Positions 4,951 to 53,653 of a stretch of DNA of 64,000 nucleotides are shown piece by piece (within the stretch, counting starts at the first letter, position 1; each line of letters starts with the position of its first letter). The stretch is from Pinibacter soli (lineage in GTDB: Bacteria > Bacteroidota > Bacteroidia > Chitinophagales > Chitinophagaceae), in the NCBI RefSeq assembly GCF_029961145.1, contig NZ_JASBRG010000007.1, forward strand, positions 598,155 through 662,154. Reading direction: 5' to 3'. The notes under the pieces were generated by a model. That model had not been told where the DNA came from and made no database searches. It saw only the letters and a program-made list of their open reading frames with translations. A program made the position numbers and the translations under genes.

Positions 4951-5232
4951 ATGGCTAAGAAGCTAAGCATTACTCCTTTGCACGACAGAGTTGTTGTAAA
5001 ACCAGCTCCTGCTGAAGAAAAAACTGCCGGCGGCATCATTATCCCTGACACAGCGAAAGAAAAACCACAACGCGGAACCGTAGTGGCTGCGGGTCCTGGT
5101 AAAAAAGACGAGCCTGTAACTGTAAAAGTTGGCGATACTGTTTTGTATGGCAAATACGCAGGTACAGAATTGAGCGTGGAAGGTAATGACTACCTGATTA
5201 TGAGAGAGAGTGACATTTTGGCCATCGTTTAA
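4951..5232 (+). CDS. groES: Co-chaperonin GroES
   Basis: [50 protein letters not shown] is a canonical GroES sequence. Confidence 0.95.
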
Positions 5233-5395: not shown

Positions 5396-7033
5396 ATGGC
5401 TAAGCAAATCTATTTCGATATCGAAGCTAGAAATAAAATGAAGAAAGGCGTTGACACTTTGGCCAACGCAGTTAAAGTAACACTTGGACCAAAAGGTCGC
5501 AACGTGGTAATCGAGAAAAAATTCGGTGCTCCTGCTATCACTAAAGATGGTGTAACGGTTGCAAAAGAAATTGAACTGGAAGACCCAATTGAAAACATGG
5601 GTGCTCAGATGGTGAAAGAAGTAGCATCTAAAACTGCTGATATTGCAGGTGACGGTACTACAACTGCTACTGTTCTTGCACAATCCATCATCAGCGAAGG
5701 TCTGAAAATGGTAGCTGCGGGTGCAAACCCAATGGACCTGAAACGCGGTATCGACAAAGCGGTGAAAGCTGTAGTTGAAAACCTCGTTAGCCAGAAAAAA
5801 GATGTTGGCAACAACAACAAAATGATCGAGCAGGTTGCTACTATTTCTGCTAACAATGATAGCGAAATTGGTAAGCTGATCGCTATGGCTATGCAGAAAG
5901 TAGGTAAAGAAGGCGTTATCACTGTAGAAGAAGCAAAAGGCACCGACACAACTGTAGACGTTGTAGAAGGTATGCAATTCGACCGTGGTTACATCTCTCC
6001 TTACTTCGTTACCAACAGCGAAAAAATGGAAGCTGAATTGCAGAACCCATACATTCTTATTTACGATAAGAAGATTGCTGCAATGAAAGACATCCTTCAC
6101 ATTTTGGAGAAAGTTGCACAAAGCGGTCGTCCGTTAGTGATCATCTCTGAAGATCTGGAAGGTGAAGCATTGGCTACATTGGTGGTAAACAAATTGCGTG
6201 GTACCATTAAGGTTGCTGCTGTTAAAGCTCCGGGCTTTGGCGACAGAAGAAAAGAAATGTTGAACGATATTGCTATCCTTACTGCAGGTACTGTAGTGAG
6301 CGAAGAGCAAGGCTTTAAACTGGAGAATGCTGACCTTACTTACTTGGGCCAGGCTTCTTCTATCACTATCGATAAAGACAACACTGTTATCGTAGGTGGC
6401 AAAGGTAAAAAAGCGGATATCACTTCTCGCATCAACCAAATTAAAGCGCAAATCGAAAACACAACATCTGACTACGATAAAGAAAAACTGCAAGAGCGTT
6501 TGGCTAAATTGAGTGGTGGTGTTGCTGTATTGTACGTAGGTGCTGCTACAGAGGTTGAAATGAAAGAAAAGAAAGACCGCGTAGACGACGCTTTACACGC
6601 TACACGTGCCGCTGTTGAAGAAGGCATCGTGCCAGGTGGTGGTGTTGCTTACATCCGTGCTATCGCAAGTTTGGAAAAACTGAAAGGTATTACCAACGCA
6701 GACGAAGCAACTGGTGTAAACATCGTTAAACGTGCTATTGAAGAGCCTCTTCGCCAGATCGTTTCTAACAGCGGTATCGAAGGTTCTATCGTGGTACAGG
6801 CGATTAAAGAAGGTGAAGCTGACTACGGTTTCAACGCTCGCACTGAAACTTATGAATATATGTTTAAAGCGGGTGTTATCGACCCAACTAAAGTGAGCCG
6901 CGTAGCATTGGAAAACGCTGCTTCTATCGCTGGTATGTTGCTGACTACAGAATGTGTAGTAGCTGACAAACCAGAACCTAAAGCTCCTGCTGGTCCTGCT
7001 ATGCCAGGCGGTATGGGTGACATGGGTTACTAA
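5396..7033 (+). CDS. groEL: Chaperonin GroEL
   Basis: 545 aa. [40 protein letters not shown], and a C-terminal GGM-type tail PGGMGDMGY. Confidence 0.97.
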
Positions 7034-7057
7034 GATTTACAGATTTGATTTTCATAT

Positions 7058-7090
7058 GGGCCGGATCCGAAAGGGTTCGGCTTTTTTTTG
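7058..7090 (+). terminator. Rho-independent terminator after groEL
   Basis: gggccggatccgaaagggttcggcttttttttg: a short GC hairpin followed by a T8 run. Confidence 0.6.
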
Positions 7091-7312
7091 TGGTCGACGG
7101 CACATCCGAATATTATTAGTACATTTTATTCTTCTTAAGGGTAAAACACTTATCTTCATCAAGTTAAAAGTTATCGCTTGCACGTGACTGTGACCATCAC
7201 CTACCGCCCAATTGAAATTTGTAAACACGAAAATTCTCCCATGACGATGTCGCGTGTTTAAAAATTCACCACGACACTACATTAAATTAACAACCTAAAT
7301 TTAACTTTAACC

Positions 7313-8107
7313 ATGGAATGCCTAAACTGCAACAATCAATTACCAGACAAAGGATTTTTTTGCCCGACCTGCTCGAATCAATTTAAGTGCAAAAGTTGCG
7401 ATGGATTACTGCTAAAAGATGCAAAAGTTTGTATCTTTTGTGGAGAACAAGTAAATGGAAATAAATCCACCATTTCGAACACCAACACTATAGAATTTTC
7501 AGAAACAGAAAACTCCAGAACGTTCAAAGCAAACTTCACAGATACAGTCGGTCAAAGTATAAGCGACTCCTTTGGAATGTTTATAATGAATAAAATTACT
7601 AGTAAAAAGCCAGCGACTTTAGGGCAACCCAAAAGCTACCCCAATAATAGACTGGATTTAAGTGAACAGGAAGAAGCAGAGATTATTGAAGAACCTTCTG
7701 ACACATTAGAATTAAGACAACTGAAAAGTATTTTTAAATCTGATGGTGACAAAACAACATTATCAGAAACTCGATTAAAAGCTACATCAAAAAGAGATTA
7801 TGGAATAAGACTCTCCATAATATTCCTTTATTATAAACTCGTATTAGGCACTGAAAACGTACCAAGAAAAGAACTCACAGCTATTTTAGACAATGCAAGT
7901 GTGGAAGATGGCAACTTACGATATTGGCTCACAAACAACCCATTAATTGGAGTGTCTGGAGACTTAGTCGAGTTAAAAGCCCCCGGGAAAGATGCTGCAA
8001 AAAAATATTTGTCAGAAATAGCTAATAAAGAACTAAAGGACAAATGGCAGATTGGCACCTATTCAAAGGTATCAAGAAAACCAAAGGAGAAAAAAGATAA
8101 AAAATGA
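7313..8107 (+). CDS. Double zinc-ribbon domain protein, function unknown; first gene of a two-gene cassette
   Basis: N-terminus carries CxxC pairs (CLNC...CPTC...CKSC...CIFC). Then comes an S/T/E-rich linker and an uncharacterised C-terminal domain of about 100 aa. The stop overlaps the downstream start by 4 bp (ATGA at 8104-8107). Local base composition is clearly more AT-rich than the flanking groEL and RAYT regions. Confidence 0.6.
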   Translation: MECLNCNNQLPDKGFFCPTCSNQFKCKSCDGLLLKDAKVCIFCGEQVNGNKSTISNTNTIEFSETENSRTFKANFTDTVGQSISDSFGMFIMNKITSKKPATLGQPKSYPNNRLDLSEQEEAEIIEEPSDTLELRQLKSIFKSDGDKTTLSETRLKATSKRDYGIRLSIIFLYYKLVLGTENVPRKELTAILDNASVEDGNLRYWLTNNPLIGVSGDLVELKAPGKDAAKKYLSEIANKELKDKWQIGTYSKVSRKPKEKKDKK

Positions 8108-8898
8108 GTGATTTCTTTAATGAATTCTGTGATATCGCCAAAATATCCGGAAAACCTAAGTTTGAGGTTGTTTTAGCATTTGTTTGGTTTAACCAATATA
8201 AAACTAAACAGCATGATATCTCAATGAAGCAAATTAATCAATACTTTGTGGATGCGCATTTATCTGCCTATAATCCGACGTATTTAAAGCGAGACCTCAA
8301 CAAAAGTTCTAAAATCACAAAAGGTACGCAGAGAGACACCTACAAACTTAATAGGAAAACACTTGATGAGTTAAATAAAATCTATTTGCCGCAAATCGAG
8401 ACCGAGGTCTCATTAACGGAGCGGGCAAACATTAAAGTCACCCCGTTTTTAAAATCAGCAGATATAGACGATGCCAAAAAAATGGCCGAATTGTATATAA
8501 TTCTACATTGTTTAGAAAATTCCGTGAGAAATTTTATAGATGATGTGCTAACAAAAAAACTAGGTCCAAATTGGTGGGACACGGCTAAAAATGCTGAATT
8601 AGAAAAAAAGTTTAAAGAAAGAAAAGAAAAAGAAGCAAAAAGCAAATGGCTGAGTCCGAGAGGAAAAGCGTCAGCTCTTTTTTACATAGACTGGGGAGAT
8701 CTGGTAAAAATTATTAGAAAGTTTGAAAATGACTTTAAGCCATATATCGATGAAATGAAATTTGTCGAACTTCGACTTGAAGAATTGGAAAAGGTAAGAA
8801 ATATCATTGCTCACAACGGAGTACTACCTTCCAGTGATGACTTTGATAGGTTAATCTTGCATTTTAAAGATTGGTGCAAACAAGTTAATGAGACCTAA
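8104..8898 (+). CDS. HEPN-domain protein (Swt1-like HEPN, R-x4-H motif); putative RNase or abortive-infection effector
   Basis: The C-terminal ...ELEKVRNIIAHNGVLPSSDDFDRL contains the RN-x3-H HEPN catalytic motif. Upstream helices (MAELYIILHCLENSVRNFIDDVLTKKLGPNWWD) resemble the Swt1/Abi-type HEPN fold. Translationally coupled to 7313-8107. Confidence 0.6.
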   Translation: MSDFFNEFCDIAKISGKPKFEVVLAFVWFNQYKTKQHDISMKQINQYFVDAHLSAYNPTYLKRDLNKSSKITKGTQRDTYKLNRKTLDELNKIYLPQIETEVSLTERANIKVTPFLKSADIDDAKKMAELYIILHCLENSVRNFIDDVLTKKLGPNWWDTAKNAELEKKFKERKEKEAKSKWLSPRGKASALFYIDWGDLVKIIRKFENDFKPYIDEMKFVELRLEELEKVRNIIAHNGVLPSSDDFDRLILHFKDWCKQVNET

Positions 8899-8955
8899 GC
8901 TTCAATGTATCAAGTTGTGAAGCAAATAAGATAAAATCATAATCAAATTAACTGC

Positions 8956-9225
8956 ATGAATAATATTCTAACTCAAGACGTACAGCAAATAGTAAAAAAC
9001 AGCAACGCTCGTTTTTTTCTTATCATTTGGTCTTCATCACAAGGAGCCTTTTTTATTTACGAAAATGGAAGCATTCAGAATATTGAGTGCGGCCACATGG
9101 CATCGCCGGCAATTCATCGAGAACAAGCAATTCTTGTTTATAAAAAAGCTGTAGCTAAAGCAGAAGATCACGCAGACATTAAAGACGGACAAATCGATAT
9201 CTTGCCTATCCCAAGCTTTAAATAA
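8956..9225 (+). CDS. Small hypothetical protein (89 aa), third co-directional gene of the low-GC islet
   Basis: ORF of 89 aa, 57 bp downstream of the HEPN gene, in the same AT-rich composition. No recognisable motif. Confidence 0.4.
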   Translation: MNNILTQDVQQIVKNSNARFFLIIWSSSQGAFFIYENGSIQNIECGHMASPAIHREQAILVYKKAVAKAEDHADIKDGQIDILPIPSFK

Positions 9226-9283
9226 TTGTCTTCATCAAGGTTATACAAGCATGAACTTTTGGAACTGGATCATGCTTGTATTT

Positions 9284-9472
9284 TTACATCAGCTGACCTC
9301 CCTCCATCAACTTCTCCAACCTCGCAATCATTTCCTCTTTCTCTTTAAGCATCCTTTCATAAAGAGCAATTTTCTCTTCATGCAGTTCAACTATTTTTTC
9401 AATGGGATGAAATGTAGGATTGTAATTGATGCCGTTTAAAATAGCACCATGATCAAAAGTATTGGAGATCAT
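9284..9472 (-). CDS. Small hypothetical coiled-coil protein (62 aa)
   Basis: ORF with heptad-like charged helix (KIVELHEEKIALYERMLKEKEEMIARLEKL). Convergent with the islet genes. Could be spurious. Confidence 0.3.
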   Translation of the reverse strand: MISNTFDHGAILNGINYNPTFHPIEKIVELHEEKIALYERMLKEKEEMIARLEKLMEGGQLM

Positions 9473-9516
9473 ATTTACCGCTTGCTCGTCATCCAGATTT
9501 TGTTACGCGAAATGAA

Positions 9517-9548
9517 CTTTCAAATTAGCATATTTTCAAATTTTCAAG
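9517..9548. repeat. Left copy of a roughly 28-bp direct repeat flanking the RAYT/REP module
   Basis: ctttcaaattagcatattttcaaattttcaag. Compare 10567-10596, attttcaaattagcgtattttcaatttcag. Confidence 0.6.
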
Positions 9549-9900
9549 TTTGGCTCGCAGGTGTGGCAGTCGGTAAGTTAGCGGGGCGGGTTTGTGTGCG
9601 AGGGGCGGGCGTTGGCACAGACACGCAGCGCTGCAAGGCTAAGCTGCATGTCTGCGCCAACGTGGCGACAGCGAGATCGTTCGCGGGCATTTTTGCAGGT
9701 GCAAGTTTCAAAAAAATGTCGCACGATACACACGACACGCTGCTGCACCTACACAATGTTGGCGCGGACATGCAGCCCAGCTTCCGTAGCCTGGCGTGTC
9801 TGTGCCGTGCACTTTCATCGTGGCAGCACTTTTCGCATGCATATCATAACCTATACCTATATTCGCAATTAACAATCTGCATTAGTAACCTGTGGCCAAC
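9549..9900. repeat. GC-rich cluster of imperfect palindromes (candidate REP/BIME-like cluster) directly upstream of the RAYT
   Basis: About 19-bp units in alternating orientation: gttggcacagacacgcagc (about 9612), gctgcatgtctgcgccaac (about 9640), gttggcgcggacatgcagc (about 9758), cgtgtctgtgccgtgcac (about 9800). This is a strongly GC-rich block in an AT-rich neighbourhood. Long ORFs are open in all frames here, which is typical of GC-rich non-coding DNA. Confidence 0.5.
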
Positions 9901-9930
9901 TTAAAAATCTACAATTAAGTTCAAAGCCAC

Positions 9931-10470
9931 ATGAGTAAAAAGTACAAATTCTTAGACAACGAAAAGCCTTACTTCGTCACATTTACTGTCGTTAATTGGA
10001 TCGATCTGTTTACAAGAAATATTTACAAAGACATCTTCCTGGATACCGTTAGATATTGCCAGCAAAACAAGGATCTCGACGTATTTGCGTGGGTCATTAT
10101 GACCAATCACGTGCACATGATAGTAGGCAGCAGAGGCAATCCATTAAGTAACATTATGCGAGATTTGAAACGGCACACATCAGAGAAATTGCATATCGCC
10201 CTTGAAGCTAACAAGAGGGAAAGCAGAAGAGAATGGATGCTGTGGCTGATGATGCGTGCAGGCAGTAAAATGGGTTTAAAATTTCAGCTTTGGCAGCCGG
10301 AAAGCCATCCAATGGAATTGAGCTCTCCTTTTATTGCAAATCAAAAGCTGCATTACCTGCATCAAAATCCTGTCAAAGCCGGCTTTGTTTCAAAAGAAGA
10401 AGAATGGACGTATAGTAGTGCAGGAGATTATCATGGCCGCAAGGGATTGCTGGAGGTAATACTAATTTGA
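9931..10470 (+). CDS. REP-associated tyrosine transposase (RAYT; IS200/IS605-like HuH TnpA family)
   Basis: HuH motif VIMTNHVHMIVG. C-terminal LWQPESHPMEL...HYLHQNPVKAGFVSKEEEWTYSS parallels E. coli YafM/RayT (IWQPRFWEH...YIYINPVKHGWV..W.FSS). Single gene, about 180 aa. Confidence 0.8.
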   Translation: MSKKYKFLDNEKPYFVTFTVVNWIDLFTRNIYKDIFLDTVRYCQQNKDLDVFAWVIMTNHVHMIVGSRGNPLSNIMRDLKRHTSEKLHIALEANKRESRREWMLWLMMRAGSKMGLKFQLWQPESHPMELSSPFIANQKLHYLHQNPVKAGFVSKEEEWTYSSAGDYHGRKGLLEVILI

Positions 10471-50285: not shown

Positions 50286-51065
50286 ATGCTTCCACATGAA
50301 CTCATCCTTCTTTGTTGCGCGGCTTTTGCGGCGGGTTTTATCGATGCTATTGTAGGCGGAGGCGGACTTGTACAAACGCCTGCAACACTGATCATTTTGC
50401 CGCAATATCCTGTTGCTACATTATTGGGCACTATAAAAATTCCTTCATTTTCCGGCACCAGTATTGCAGCATGGCAATATACAAGACGTGTAAAGCTTGA
50501 TATGCGCTTGCTGGCAGGCGTATCAATCTGTGCCTTTTTTGCGGCACTGTTCGGCTCAGCCATGGCCAGCAAATTAAGCAATGCTGTTTTTAAACCTGTC
50601 ATATTAATATTGCTGATTGGCGTTGCCATCTATACGTATAGTAACAAAAAATTCGGGCAAAGCGAACATGAGTTAAAGGAAACAAAAAATGCGCTGGCCT
50701 ATGGCATTTCATTTGGCCTCCTGCTAGGTTTCTATGATGGCTTCATCGGTCCGGGAACAGGTAGTTTTCTTATTCTCCTCTTTGTAAGTGTATTAGGTCA
50801 GGACTTTCTGCATGCCAGCGCTTACGCGAAAATCATTAACCTTGCCACGAATTGTGCATCGATCATCTACTTCAGCAGCACCGGTCATATTTTGTATCAT
50901 TATGCAATCCCCATGGCGGTATTTAATGTTTGCGGCTCATTCGTTGGTGCGAGGCTAGCCTTGCTAAAAGGTAATCGTTTTATACGCATCGTCTTTTTAA
51001 TCGTGGTAACGGGCATGATCATACGTTTTGCGTGGGATGTAGCGAAGCTGGCGATAAGAGGTTAG
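50286..51065 (+). CDS. Sulfite exporter TauE/SafE-family (TSUP) membrane protein
   Basis: Two 4-TM repeats each with Gly-rich motifs (AAGFIDAIVGGGG...; GFYDGFIGPGTGSFL). Confidence 0.8.
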   Translation: MLPHELILLCCAAFAAGFIDAIVGGGGLVQTPATLIILPQYPVATLLGTIKIPSFSGTSIAAWQYTRRVKLDMRLLAGVSICAFFAALFGSAMASKLSNAVFKPVILILLIGVAIYTYSNKKFGQSEHELKETKNALAYGISFGLLLGFYDGFIGPGTGSFLILLFVSVLGQDFLHASAYAKIINLATNCASIIYFSSTGHILYHYAIPMAVFNVCGSFVGARLALLKGNRFIRIVFLIVVTGMIIRFAWDVAKLAIRG

Positions 51066-51584
51066 CTGCTAGTTATTGGTTATTAGCCATCAATTTTGAC
51101 TAGCGGAGACTAAAGCAGAACAACCAACAATCCACTAAGTGTATCCCCTTAGATCCGAAAAATTTTCTTCAATAAAATTGGATTATATTATTTTGACATT
51201 TAATTTAACATATCCATAGCAGTTAGACTGCTTTTAAACCTTCTCCTTAGTTAACAAAGATGTAATACACAAACTGAACATTTCGTTGAAAGTTTCAAGA
51301 TATTTGCATTGTCAAGTTACAATATCCAATTAGAAAAAAACCAATAGTCCATTAGTCCAAAAAACCGAGTCCACGTCCAATGAACAAACAAGCATCACAA
51401 CCTTTTCTATGAAGTAATTATCCACCAATCCATGTGAAGACCAGGTAATATATCCGATCCTAGCAGTCAAGATTTATCCACCTTTATTATATTACCTAAT
51501 TTTAAAAAAGCTGTTCTAACGAACGGCTTTTTTTATTCTTAGTAACTGAATAACTGAGTTTTCAAGTCAAGATGTTCGAAAAAA

Positions 51585-51677
51585 AATTAATAATTAATAA
51601 TTAAAAATTAACAGGGCATTGTCGATTATAATTTTGAGGGCAACACTATTAATTCTTAATTATTAATTATTAATTGA
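51585..51677. repeat. AATTAAT-armed element, degenerate copy
   Basis: aaaaattaataattaataattaaaaattaacagggcattgtcg...gagggcaacactattaattcttaattattaattattaattg. Confidence 0.55.
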
Positions 51678-51855
51678 ATTGGTGCCAGGCGTTATCAGAC
51701 ATTCATTTTATAAAGCAAGTCTGACACTTACCTGGACTTAGTTATTTGTATTGGATGTTTTCGTTTTTGCCCATGCAAATTTATCAATCCTTGTACCACG
51801 CAGTATTAAGGAGTAGTTAACTTAGCGTTGTTGAATTGATTTTAACAAAATCAAT

Positions 51856-52173
51856 TTATGACTCCAGACCCTTATCATCAAAGAGAGCGAGTATCTGTTG
51901 TGATTTAATTTCTGTGTCGGCATTCTGCAGCATACAATGCAGATGCATCAGTTCTTTTTCAGTTAAAACAATGTGGACAATATTACCCGGTGTAGGAAGA
52001 ACGATATATTTCAACTTATCATCAATGGGAACAAGCGTTTCACAACGCGCCGTTACTAACTCAATAAAAGTTTCGAAATTATTTTTATCAAGTATCAGCA
52101 TCGTTGTGCCAAATGTTACCTGGTAAATGTTACAAGCATGATCGTCAAAATGCCATGATTTGAAATTGCACAT
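51856..52173 (-). CDS. Hypothetical protein (105 aa)
   Basis: ORF only. Confidence 0.35.
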   Translation of the reverse strand: MCNFKSWHFDDHACNIYQVTFGTTMLILDKNNFETFIELVTARCETLVPIDDKLKYIVLPTPGNIVHIVLTEKELMHLHCMLQNADTEIKSQQILALFDDKGLES

Positions 52174-52253
52174 ATTGGAAGTTTATGGTGCAAATGAAAT
52201 ACGGAGTGTTGAGAGATCGGTTATAGATTAGGGAATTCGGTTTGCGAGAGAGA

Positions 52254-52390
52254 AAAATTAATAATTAAGAATTAAGAATTAATAGTGTGCATTCGAAATC
52301 ATAGTCGCCGTTCATGACTAGTCAAAAAAATAGGGAATCATCGAATAAACGACTGATGCCCTATTAATTTTTAATTATTAATTATTAATT
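52254..52390. repeat. AATTAAT-armed element with a bidirectional terminator hairpin
   Basis: aaaattaataattaagaattaagaattaatagtg...aaaaaaatagggaatcatcgaataaacgactgatgccctattaatttttaattattaattattaatt. Ends 4 bp before the stop of the MFS gene. Confidence 0.65.
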
Positions 52391-52393
52391 ACC

Positions 52394-53653
52394 TCAATGT
52401 CTCACCGCCACCGCTTCACTCGCCACATGTTTATGTTTGAAAAATACGGCGAACAAAACCGCTACGATTAAGGCATATATAGAGAATGCCATCCAGATGC
52501 CGTGCCAGTTCTTGGTACCGTCCATTGAAGTGTAGTATTCCTGAATTATAAATCCGCTAATGGTACTTCCTGCAACGGCTCCTACTCCATTTGTCATCAT
52601 CATAAACATTCCCTGTGCACTTGACCTGATATGAGGTGTAGTGGACGTTTCCACAAATAGCGAACCGGAAACGTTGAAGAAATCGAATGCCATTCCATAA
52701 ACAATGCAGGACAAAATAATAAGACTTACTCCAACCGGTGAAGGATCGCCATACGCAAACAGCCCAAACCTGAACACCCAGGCCAGCATACTTATAAGCA
52801 TAACATTCTTAATACCAAAGCGTCTCAGGAAAAATGGAATCGCAAGAATGAAAGCTGTTTCAGAAAACTGAGAGATAGACATGATGATGGTTGACCTTTT
52901 CACCACGAATGAATTCGCATATTCGGGAACCTTACTGAACTCGCCCAGAAAAACGTCTCCATAAGCATTCGTCAGTTGCAACGCCGCTCCAAGAAACATG
53001 GAGAAAATAAAGAAGAGCGCCATTTTCTTATCCTTGAATAAAGCCAAAGCATCAAGACCCAATATCTGTCCCCAACTCTTTTTCCCGGTTTGTTTACCCA
53101 ATGGCGGACATGCCGGCAACGTAAATGAATACAGGCCCAGTATAAACGATGCTATTGCTGCGATATAAAATTGGTTGGCAGACGCCTTATTTCCGCTGAG
53201 ATTGGTGGTCCACATTGCTGCTATGAAGCCTATAGTTCCAAAAACACGAATTGGCGGAAAGTCAAGCACTACATCAAACTGGTTATTTTTTAACCCGGTA
53301 TAACCTATGGAATTGGCAAGCGCTATGGTAGGCATGTAGAAAATCATAGCCAATAAGATTCCCCAAAAAAACTGAGAAGGATCATTGATCTGCGGGATCA
53401 GGCATAAGGACATACCGCTTAATACGTGGAGAAATCCGTACAGTTTCTCGGCATTCACCCAGCGATCCGCCACCACTCCCATCAATGCCGGCATAAATAA
53501 GGATGCGATTCCCATTGTTGAAAAAATAACTCCAAACTTTCCTCCATCCCATCCTTTTGTGCTAAACCAGTAATTGCCAATTGTGATTAGCCATGAACCC
53601 CAAACAAAAAATTGCAGGAAACTCATTATCGTCAGGCGGAACTTAATACTCAT
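52394..53653 (-). CDS. MFS transporter, nucleoside:H+ symporter (NupG/XapB-like) family
   Basis: 12 TM helices. N-terminus MSIKFRLTIMSFLQFFVWGSWLITIGNYW is typical of the NHS family. Confidence 0.75.
   Translation of the reverse strand: MSIKFRLTIMSFLQFFVWGSWLITIGNYWFSTKGWDGGKFGVIFSTMGIASLFMPALMGVVADRWVNAEKLYGFLHVLSGMSLCLIPQINDPSQFFWGILLAMIFYMPTIALANSIGYTGLKNNQFDVVLDFPPIRVFGTIGFIAAMWTTNLSGNKASANQFYIAAIASFILGLYSFTLPACPPLGKQTGKKSWGQILGLDALALFKDKKMALFFIFSMFLGAALQLTNAYGDVFLGEFSKVPEYANSFVVKRSTIIMSISQFSETAFILAIPFFLRRFGIKNVMLISMLAWVFRFGLFAYGDPSPVGVSLIILSCIVYGMAFDFFNVSGSLFVETSTTPHIRSSAQGMFMMMTNGVGAVAGSTISGFIIQEYYTSMDGTKNWHGIWMAFSIYALIVAVLFAVFFKHKHVASEAVAVRH

Follow-up and report, generated by a model that had tools for sequence, protein, structure and literature searches.

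Two adjacent genes of the soil bacterium Pinibacter soli (Bacteroidota, Chitinophagaceae), designated A and B in the present analysis, are proposed to form a self-contained conflict module of the toxin–antitoxin (TA) or abortive-infection type, in which the small partner protein A would control the predicted HEPN ribonuclease B; a probability of about 0.6 is given to this reading, which is drawn from computational evidence. Both genes occur in a stretch of 64,000 nucleotides from contig NZ_JASBRG010000007.1 (positions 598,155 to 662,154), which is called the window hereafter and whose own numbering is used for all coordinates given without a locus name. Gene A (7313..8107, + strand) and gene B (8104..8898, + strand) are open reading frames (ORFs) which each code for a protein of 264 residues, 100% identical to its NCBI record, where A is named 'zinc ribbon domain-containing protein' and B 'Swt1 family HEPN domain-containing protein'; A has 60 homologues and B more than 137. 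The stop codon of A and the start codon of B overlap in the four nucleotides ATGA (8104..8107, + strand), as read from the sequence, which confirms the co-directional and overlapping arrangement described in an earlier note on this DNA. The overall interpretation of that note, a compact defence or toxin-like system combining a zinc-ribbon protein with a HEPN protein, is supported.

Protein B, a member of the HEPN superfamily

By profile, motif and fold alike, protein B belongs to the HEPN superfamily and, within it, to the Swt1-like family. The Pfam family HEPN_Swt1 (PF18731), which had been anticipated for the second protein, is matched above its gathering cutoff (expectation value E 8.9e-13, 49.0 bits against 27.5), residues 134-262 of B being aligned with positions 3-115 of a model of 115 positions. 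Two further Pfam families give matches below threshold, HEPN_SAV2148 and Abi_2, the latter restricted to residues 194-241 (E 0.0014, 19.3 bits against a cutoff of 25.6). Among the PADLOC models, residues 107-262 correspond to the candidate PDC-M34B (PDLC04592, E 8.2e-44; the PDC-M34B models span E 8e-44 to 1e-23), and a weak partial match to PD-T4-5 also occurs. PADLOC recognizes the HEPN domain of B as this candidate and nothing else in the pair, in agreement with the earlier statement that the genes could not be assigned to any named system.

B comprises an N-terminal winged-helix module (residues 1-105; 8104..8418, + strand), which is related to domains of the partner proteins and elsewhere precedes different effector domains, and a HEPN domain of the Abi2/Swt1 clade (residues 118-262; 8455..8889, + strand). 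The first helix of the HEPN domain carries the motif E138-N-S-V-R142 (8515..8529, + strand, codons GAA AAT TCC GTG AGA), and the catalytic R-x4-H signature of HEPN RNases reads R232-N-I-I-A-H237 (8797..8814, + strand, codons AGA AAT ATC ATT GCT CAC). The peptide KVRNIIAHNG, from which this signature had been recognized, is present but does not terminate the protein as had been stated, since 27 residues follow the motif. In 75 homologues, down to 41% identity, the residues C136, E138, N139, S140, R142, R232, N233, A236 and H237 are invariant, among them the R, N and H of the RN-x3-H motif on which the first interpretation relied; such an invariance indicates that both the R-x4-H signature and the E-N-S-x-R motif of helix 1 are under strict constraint. 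The AlphaFold model of B, with a predicted local distance difference test score (pLDDT) of 91, displays the all-α fold of HEPN domains in its entirely helical HEPN part, and its closest folds are AbiF and HEPN toxins; no sequence relatives were found among solved structures. B is predicted to be an endoribonuclease and represents a candidate RNA-cutting toxin.

Protein A, a partner built from five parts

The AlphaFold model of A (mean pLDDT 72) consists of five parts. The N-terminal residues 1-46 (7313..7450, + strand) form a probable double zinc ribbon with eight cysteines, made of short strands modelled at a pLDDT of about 80. Its four CxxC pairs (C3/C6, C17/C20, C26/C29 and C40/C43) had been correctly counted before, and all eight cysteines are kept in every homologue of A that has the N-terminus (35-36 of 37). 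The Pfam family DZR (PF12773) is matched below threshold by A (E 5.4e-4, 20.5 bits against a cutoff of 27.3) and above threshold by a long homologue of A (locus L010, 34.1 bits).

The second part, residues 57-94 (7481..7594, + strand; NTIEFSETENSRTFKANFTDTVGQSISDSFG), comprises a β-hairpin (57-64 and 69-76) followed by a helix (81-94) and is the best-conserved part of A, with a mean majority-residue fraction of 0.79, 16 of its 38 columns conserved at 90% or more, and N58, E64, R69, F71, K72, A73, F75, V79 and G80 invariant. The monomer model gives it a pLDDT of only 50-58, and a segment that is conserved yet poorly modelled may be one that folds on a partner. A predicted disordered linker follows (residues 95-128; 7595..7696, + strand), with a pLDDT below 50 over residues 94-128, a conservation of 0.35 and no column at 90% or more, and leads to a winged-helix domain (residues 129-240; 7697..8032, + strand) modelled at a pLDDT of about 90 with a conservation of 0.70. 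The protein ends with a lysine-rich tail (residues 241-264) of low model confidence and a conservation of 0.62. A usually upstream position of the gene, a winged helix, a long disordered linker and a conserved segment poorly predicted in isolation are partner traits typical of antitoxins.

A winged-helix module common to partner and effector

Besides the short form of A found in the window, longer forms of the partner contain two domains related to each other, domain 2 being aligned by hhalign with domain 1 at 92% (E 7e-7), with the C-terminal domain of the small partners of Bacillus and Ca. Stahlbacteria at 98.9% (E 3e-17), and with the N-terminal domain of B at 83.9% (E 7.8e-6). When hmmsearch was used with domain 2 of the long forms, several N-termini of B were matched in register (E 3e-4 to 2e-2). 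Domain 1 in turn aligns with the C-terminal domain of the short A of the window over 87 columns in register (42.6%, E 2.5e-4), so that the homology between the short A and the N-terminus of B would run through the long forms. The element which recurs in most partner types is a winged-helix module, a more distantly related copy of which stands at the N-terminus of B; no model of this module occurs in Pfam, NCBIfam or PADLOC.

In this respect, the zinc ribbon is of secondary importance. It is missing from protein P0161 and from the partner of locus L035, which otherwise corresponds to A (hairpin E 8e-24, C-terminal domain E 2e-52), and the latter case makes the ribbon an accessory element. The earlier note had centred the system on a zinc-ribbon partner for a HEPN protein; such a partner is present here, but some partners lack the ribbon and it is the winged-helix module that recurs.

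Effector swapping behind the same N-terminal module

A profile of the N-terminal module of B (alignment A6), run against 1.84 billion representative proteins, yielded 310 clusters at E ≤1e-3. The best 149 matches include 89 full-length proteins, of which 9 carry a Swt1-type HEPN domain. Sorted according to their motifs, the same 89 proteins comprise 48 clusters with a DUF4145-like HEPN domain ('FRxLGNFSAH', the family to which the HEPN domain of RAZR belongs, Pfam DUF4145 being just below threshold), 7 clusters of an 'RRNxCGHP' class and 7 of an 'SRKIADxxLH' class, both without any Pfam match in the scan, 7 with RNxxAH (Swt1 or Ymh) and 20 others. Depending on the protein, the module also precedes a Hypoth_Ymh HEPN domain (P0307, E 1e-33), which also matches the models of PD-Lambda-3_B and of HEPN proteins associated with prokaryotic Argonautes (pAgo), a CAP12/Pycsar-type TIR domain (P0253, E 4e-30; CBASS TIR-effector model E 2e-44), a TIR_2 domain (P0278, E 1e-12) or domains of the Pfam TPR families (P0195).

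The swapped effectors are themselves accompanied by partners. A gene containing the partner module lies directly upstream of the DUF4145-type effector of L039 (E 1.8e-28, 4-nucleotide overlap), the RRNxCGHP-class effector of L041 (E 6e-8, overlapping genes), the TIR-type effector of L038 (winged-helix module, E 1.8e-6) and the SRKIAD-class effector of L042 (E 0.004), while the contig of the Ymh-type variant L040 is too short for its partner to be judged. Joining one constant regulatory module to toxic domains that vary from protein to protein is recognized as a hallmark of prokaryotic conflict systems.

In L038, a second partner-like ORF (L038:2948-3391) overlaps the stop codon of the TIR effector gene by 4 nucleotides and is cut by the end of the contig; its hairpin-type N-terminus (VTTYRLRVAFEGKEIEVES…) resembles that of the small partners of Dehalococcoidia.

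Pairing, distribution and mobility of the two genes

The loci were collected by a pattern-limited scan in which each species was represented by a single genome (30 loci from 185,579 species representatives), completed by contig look-ups. An adjacent and coupled partner gene stands beside every full-length B examined (about 27 loci from at least five phyla), A adjoins B in all Bacteroidota loci, and the co-occurrence of the pair in other genomes expected by the earlier note was seen in all loci examined. In the Swt1-type loci with the partner upstream, the spacing of the two genes ranges from a 20-nucleotide overlap to a 27-nucleotide gap, compared with the 4-nucleotide overlap observed here. 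Partners of the A type are found upstream of B in Chitinophagaceae, Bacteroidales, Arenibacter and others; long A forms (364-408 residues) occur upstream in Fluviicola, Pedobacter and Arcticibacterium and downstream in two Mucilaginibacter genomes; and small partners (137-219 residues) devoid of the zinc ribbon characterize Dehalococcoidia, Bacillus, Ca. Stahlbacteria and Tepidisphaeraceae. With their two adjacent, co-directional and tightly coupled small genes, A and B have the layout of type II TA systems.

The pair moves as a unit. BLASTN comparison with the closest relatives (L004 and L005, 74-75% identity) aligned the window from 7290 or 7313 to 8885, that is A and B without their flanks, and related genera harbour the pair at differing genomic sites. 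Three Bacteroidota genomes contain relics of the 3' end of B of 49-74 bp (25-28 codons; L030:6070-6142, L031:8001-8075 and L032:8030-8078), up to 84% identical in nucleotides to window 8815-8887, which are remnants of lost copies and indicate gain and loss. The GC content of the pair, which occupies the lowest-GC stretch of the window, amounts to 0.347 as compared to a window mean of 0.413 (standard deviation 0.024 for windows of the same size), which bears out the AT-rich islet noticed earlier; as low a GC content occurs in 1.5% of the same-size windows, nearly all of them overlapping A and B, and for the islet 7084-9225 in only 0.24% of the windows of its size. The unit consists of two genes, obligatorily paired, tightly coupled and horizontally mobile.

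A few related loci depart from this simple scheme. In Pedobacter yulinensis, an extra gene for a 311-residue protein (L010:5872-6807), devoid of the zinc ribbon and possessing a hairpin-like N-terminus and both partner domains (domain 1 E 9e-30, domain 2 E 4e-23), precedes the long zinc-ribbon partner, so that two partner paralogues in tandem are followed by B and then by the gene for Tmn. Cyanobacterial relatives (L021:7716-8459, L028 and L037:6716-7465) share the HEPN domain only, at 54-60% identity to residues 106-262 of B, match PDC-M34B with E 1.6e-41, and differ from B in their N-terminal region and upstream genes; one of them is carried by a conjugative plasmid of Sphaerospermopsis. These HEPN-only relatives may be closer to PDC-M34 proper.

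Genomic neighbours of the pair in other genomes

Several relatives directly adjoin known defence genes, namely those for an AbiLi-like AAA_21 ATPase (E 1e-70) and a trypsin-like or LmuA-like protease in L007, Tmn (E 2e-80) in L010, a DndB/DpdB-like protein and a GIY-YIG nuclease in L005, and Drt2 (E 8e-132), a KAP NTPase and GASH/DO-GTPase genes in L015, and other loci have integrases, transposases or a PemK toxin nearby. The proximity to defence genes which the earlier note had proposed to check is seen in these relatives, and an enrichment near such genes is no more than suggestive.

In both Mucilaginibacter loci, the same two in which the zinc-ribbon partner lies downstream of B, a gene for an RtcB RNA ligase (Pfam RtcB, E 1e-82; L011:6422-7924 and L008:53-1723) is located directly upstream of the HEPN gene on the same strand. 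RtcB seals ends bearing 2',3'-cyclic phosphate and 5'-OH groups, the products expected from a HEPN RNase, and this vicinity hints at a pairing of damage and repair; the two adjacencies probably go back to a single evolutionary event.

Proposed mechanism and alternative readings

The active site of HEPN RNases is built from both subunits of a dimer, and TIR effectors become active when they assemble. Both kinds of effectors depend on self-association, and from what is generally known of them their control via a common module appears plausible. According to the proposed mechanism, B would be a metal-independent endoribonuclease of the Abi2/Swt1 clade, whose activity would need the R-x4-H motifs paired across the dimer. 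A would be made in a fixed proportion to B from one transcript, via the overlapping stop and start codons, and would dock on B by its winged-helix domain and/or its conserved β-hairpin and helix, thus keeping the HEPN active site of B unformed or occluded. Where it is present, the zinc ribbon of A would receive the input by binding a protein or nucleic acid of phage origin; in another version, B could be released when A is lost, via its disordered linker, once host gene expression shuts off. The freed B would cut RNA and stop growth. That A acts as an inhibitor rather than an activator, that it binds B, by which surface, on which trigger and with phage defence as the outcome, is what we infer, the defence role of the pair being a computational proposal. 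The precedents of Retron-Kva2 and RAZR, discussed below, make it plausible that A silences B until its release.

A number of observations weigh against this reading. In the window itself, no defence genes stand beside the pair, whose neighbours are groEL and a RAYT-like gene. The region upstream of A contains a 14-nucleotide inverted repeat (7216-7229 / 7253-7266) which nine relatives do not share in front of A, so that its role as an operator is unsupported and was dropped, and no conserved operator was found there. Compared directly, the C-terminal domain of the short A and the N-terminus of B show weak similarity (15.8%, E 1.6e-3). Local hhalign and hmmsearch gave nothing significant between the small partners of Dehalococcoidia and either A or the winged-helix module; as homologues of A these partners are unlinked and were set aside, their layout alone (hairpin and helix, basic linker, C-terminal domain) being alike. 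The order in the two Mucilaginibacter loci, B and then its partner, is unusual for a classic type II TA system. The 141 surveyed neighbours are mostly ordinary genes, and in Dehalococcoidia the pair keeps a syntenic place next to mutS, with housekeeping genes around it. Neither the 50,697 phage records nor the IMG/VR contigs contained a relative, and the only one detected among 72,556 plasmids, on that of a cyanobacterium, is distant and shares the HEPN domain alone.

A wider reading, put forward tentatively, would make the pair one member of a broad and undescribed family of modular two-gene immune systems, in which a dedicated winged-helix module might connect variable inputs (double zinc ribbon and hairpin, hairpin alone, or helical) with toxic domains that replace one another, drawn from two TIR types and at least three HEPN families. 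As a decoy subunit, the partner would then control the self-assembly of the effector, the one step shared by HEPN and TIR effectors.

The main rival explanation, which we consider rather unlikely, takes A as a sensor and activator: B alone would be inactive, and the zinc ribbon and hairpin of A would bind a phage structure and assemble HEPN dimers via the common module, in a two-polypeptide version of the principle of RAZR. In RAZR, a Cys4 zinc ribbon is indeed the phage-sensing end that drives HEPN assembly, and the conservation of the zinc ribbon and hairpin, the reversed gene order in some loci and the reuse of the module with TIR domains, active only on assembly, are consistent with such a role. 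However, many partners are devoid of the zinc ribbon, so that sensing by the ribbon cannot be the general mechanism; the tight coupling of the genes, the usually upstream position of the partner and its disordered linker fit neutralization better; and in the sole studied pair of a HEPN protein with a winged-helix protein, the latter inhibits.

Control of B by A could also serve a plain addiction-type TA module, which would stabilize the DNA carrying it and play no role in phage defence. This explanation, to which a low probability is assigned, accounts for a horizontally mobile cassette of two overlapping genes and deviant composition, sometimes adjoining transposases, PemK or integrases, and in Dehalococcoidia located in housekeeping surroundings. 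The near absence of relatives from the plasmids and their absence from the phage records searched speak against it, and the reuse of the module with TIR and several HEPN families, together with the AbiLi-like, Tmn, DRT2 and DndB-like neighbours, argues for immunity; since both functions are combined in many TA systems, the addiction and defence readings overlap.

A housekeeping pair, with A as a DNA- or RNA-binding regulator and B as an RNA-processing enzyme of normal RNA metabolism, is very improbable. The very sparse and patchy distribution of the genes (the 30 loci mentioned above, in a pattern-limited scan), their differing positions in related genera, their deviant GC content, the gene relics and the swapping of effectors with TIR domains are all unlike a conserved housekeeping role, and they outweigh the winged-helix domains on both proteins, the stable position beside mutS in Dehalococcoidia, the RtcB ligase adjoining the pair in Mucilaginibacter and the eukaryotic Swt1 and Las1, whose HEPN domains serve RNA surveillance and processing. 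Finally, that the pair is an instance of PDC-M34, or an accessory RNase of a restriction-modification (RM) or BREX system, is scarcely credible, for, despite the match of the HEPN domain of B to PDC-M34B, the definition of the PDC candidates by their occurrence within RM type I, BREX or DISARM loci and the frequent embedding of Abi2/Swt1 HEPN domains in RM operons, neither A nor the other partner types match any PADLOC model at E up to 1, the PDC-M34B model omits the N-terminal module, and the flanks here are groEL, an orphan ORF and a Y1 transposase.

If the proposed control of B by A is confirmed, the compact unit of 1.6 kb would be an immune or toxin module built on an RNase and present in Bacteroidota, including gut Bacteroidales, in Bacillota, Chloroflexota and other phyla, with a reusable winged-helix adaptor between HEPN or TIR effectors and their sensor or antitoxin partners, which would bear on how small self-assembling effectors are kept silent and then released. 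Owing to the invisibility of the module to Pfam, NCBIfam and PADLOC, such systems are missed in defence censuses.

Other features of the window

Upstream of the pair are located groES (4951-5232) and groEL (5396-7033), the latter followed by a terminator-like hairpin (7058-7083); the intergenic region between this terminator and A (7084..7312, + strand) is the presumed promoter region. Downstream of B, ORF C (8956-9225, 89 residues, GC 0.367), an NCBI hypothetical protein, had been noticed as a third small ORF; it is present, but a search of 5.8 billion proteins returned itself as the sole match, no homologue stands beside the pair in any other locus examined, and its membership of the module was rejected for this orphan status and the lack of a counterpart in related loci. 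It may be no real gene. A perfect palindrome of 12 nucleotides (9243-9254 / 9270-9281) lies 3' of ORF C and is followed by a 62-residue ORF (9284-9472, - strand), which codes for a coiled-coil-like peptide (…EKIALYERMLKEKEEMIARLEKLMEGG…) and may be a gene fragment.

The RAYT-like Y1-transposase gene (9931..10470; Y1_Tnp E 4.7e-7, 30.4 bits against a cutoff of 23) is confirmed as a neighbour, though not an immediate one as had been claimed, its distance from the stop codon of B being about 1 kb. Just upstream of it, a local cluster of GC-rich palindromes in three to four copies (9611-9806) contains three copies of a GCTGCATGTCTGCGCCAAC-like 19-mer and a GGCACAGACACGC inverted pair, in a layout resembling repetitive extragenic palindromes (REP) or bacterial interspersed mosaic elements (BIME); no further copies of these palindromes occur within the 64-kb window. 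The sole other stretch of the window with a GC content matching that of the pair (about 0.345) extends from about 50750 to 52750 and contains ORFs for a membrane protein of 259 residues (50286-51065) and a protein of 105 residues (51856-52173), and the start of a transporter-like ORF of 419 residues. The module profiles have no match in this stretch, and no further copies of the A or B modules were found elsewhere in the window.

Comparison with known systems

The closest mechanistic precedent for the proposed restraint of B by A is, by analogy, Retron-Kva2 (type IX), which likewise combines a HEPN RNase with a separate protein containing a winged-helix-type domain. In this abortive defence system, which needs a reverse transcriptase and multicopy single-stranded DNA (msDNA), the winged-helix protein alone mitigates the toxicity of the HEPN protein, wraps the HEPN dimer and blocks the access of substrate. 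Unlike Retron-Kva2, whose HEPN protein lacks the canonical Rx4-6H motif and whose winged-helix protein has alpha-beta-beta-alpha-beta domains, the present locus has neither reverse transcriptase nor non-coding RNA, its HEPN domain is a canonical one of the Swt1 type, B has a winged-helix module of its own, and A possesses a zinc ribbon and a hairpin. An assignment to the type IX retrons was rejected, the flanks being groES/groEL, the orphan ORF and the Y1 transposase and the Rfam scan containing no retron RNA.

RAZR (PD-T7-4), an abortive-infection system, also combines a Cys4-type zinc ribbon with a HEPN RNase, the ribbon docking onto phage portal or recombinase rings and thereby activating the RNase. 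A further link is provided by the largest class of proteins carrying the N-terminal module of B, with its DUF4145-like HEPN domain of the RAZR family. In RAZR, one polypeptide carries both the ribbon and a DUF4145 HEPN domain, without a winged-helix module, whereas in A and B the zinc ribbon and a Swt1-type HEPN domain reside on two proteins and the ribbon is dispensable in some members. Identity with RAZR was discarded, B having no DUF4145 match, PADLOC no PD-T7-4 match, and the ribbon being on a separate protein. Under the proposed control of B by A, the pair would constitute a two-polypeptide counterpart to RAZR and to the HEPN and winged-helix pair of the type IX retron.

With respect to AbiF and AbiD (Abi_2), which are linked to a non-coding RNA, the partner is here a protein and the Abi_2 match remains below threshold. 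No tandem repeats were found near A or B, nor any relevant Rfam match in 6900-10000 at E up to 1, and an RNA antitoxin as in AbiF or ToxIN was rejected on these grounds. The PADLOC candidate PDC-M34 is a two-family cassette; the HEPN domain of B fits PDC-M34B, whose models do not include the N-terminal module, and A and nine other partner proteins matched no PADLOC model, PDC-M34A included, so that membership of PDC-M34 was rejected for every partner tested. No published mention of PDC-M34, and no published description of the pairing of A with B, was found in the literature searched, in which Anantharaman et al. (2013) was the sole match to the Swt1-family HEPN domain. As compared to HEPN-MNT and the type II or type IV TA pairs, A has no MNT match and the HEPN family of B differs from theirs. 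The AbiE antitoxin also has a winged-helix domain; we know of no homologous module common to effector and partner in these HEPN-MNT and type II/IV systems.

Systems in which a small partner controls a HEPN effector are known in kind, and it is the split zinc-ribbon/HEPN arrangement, together with the module common to partner and effector and its swapped effectors, that is new.

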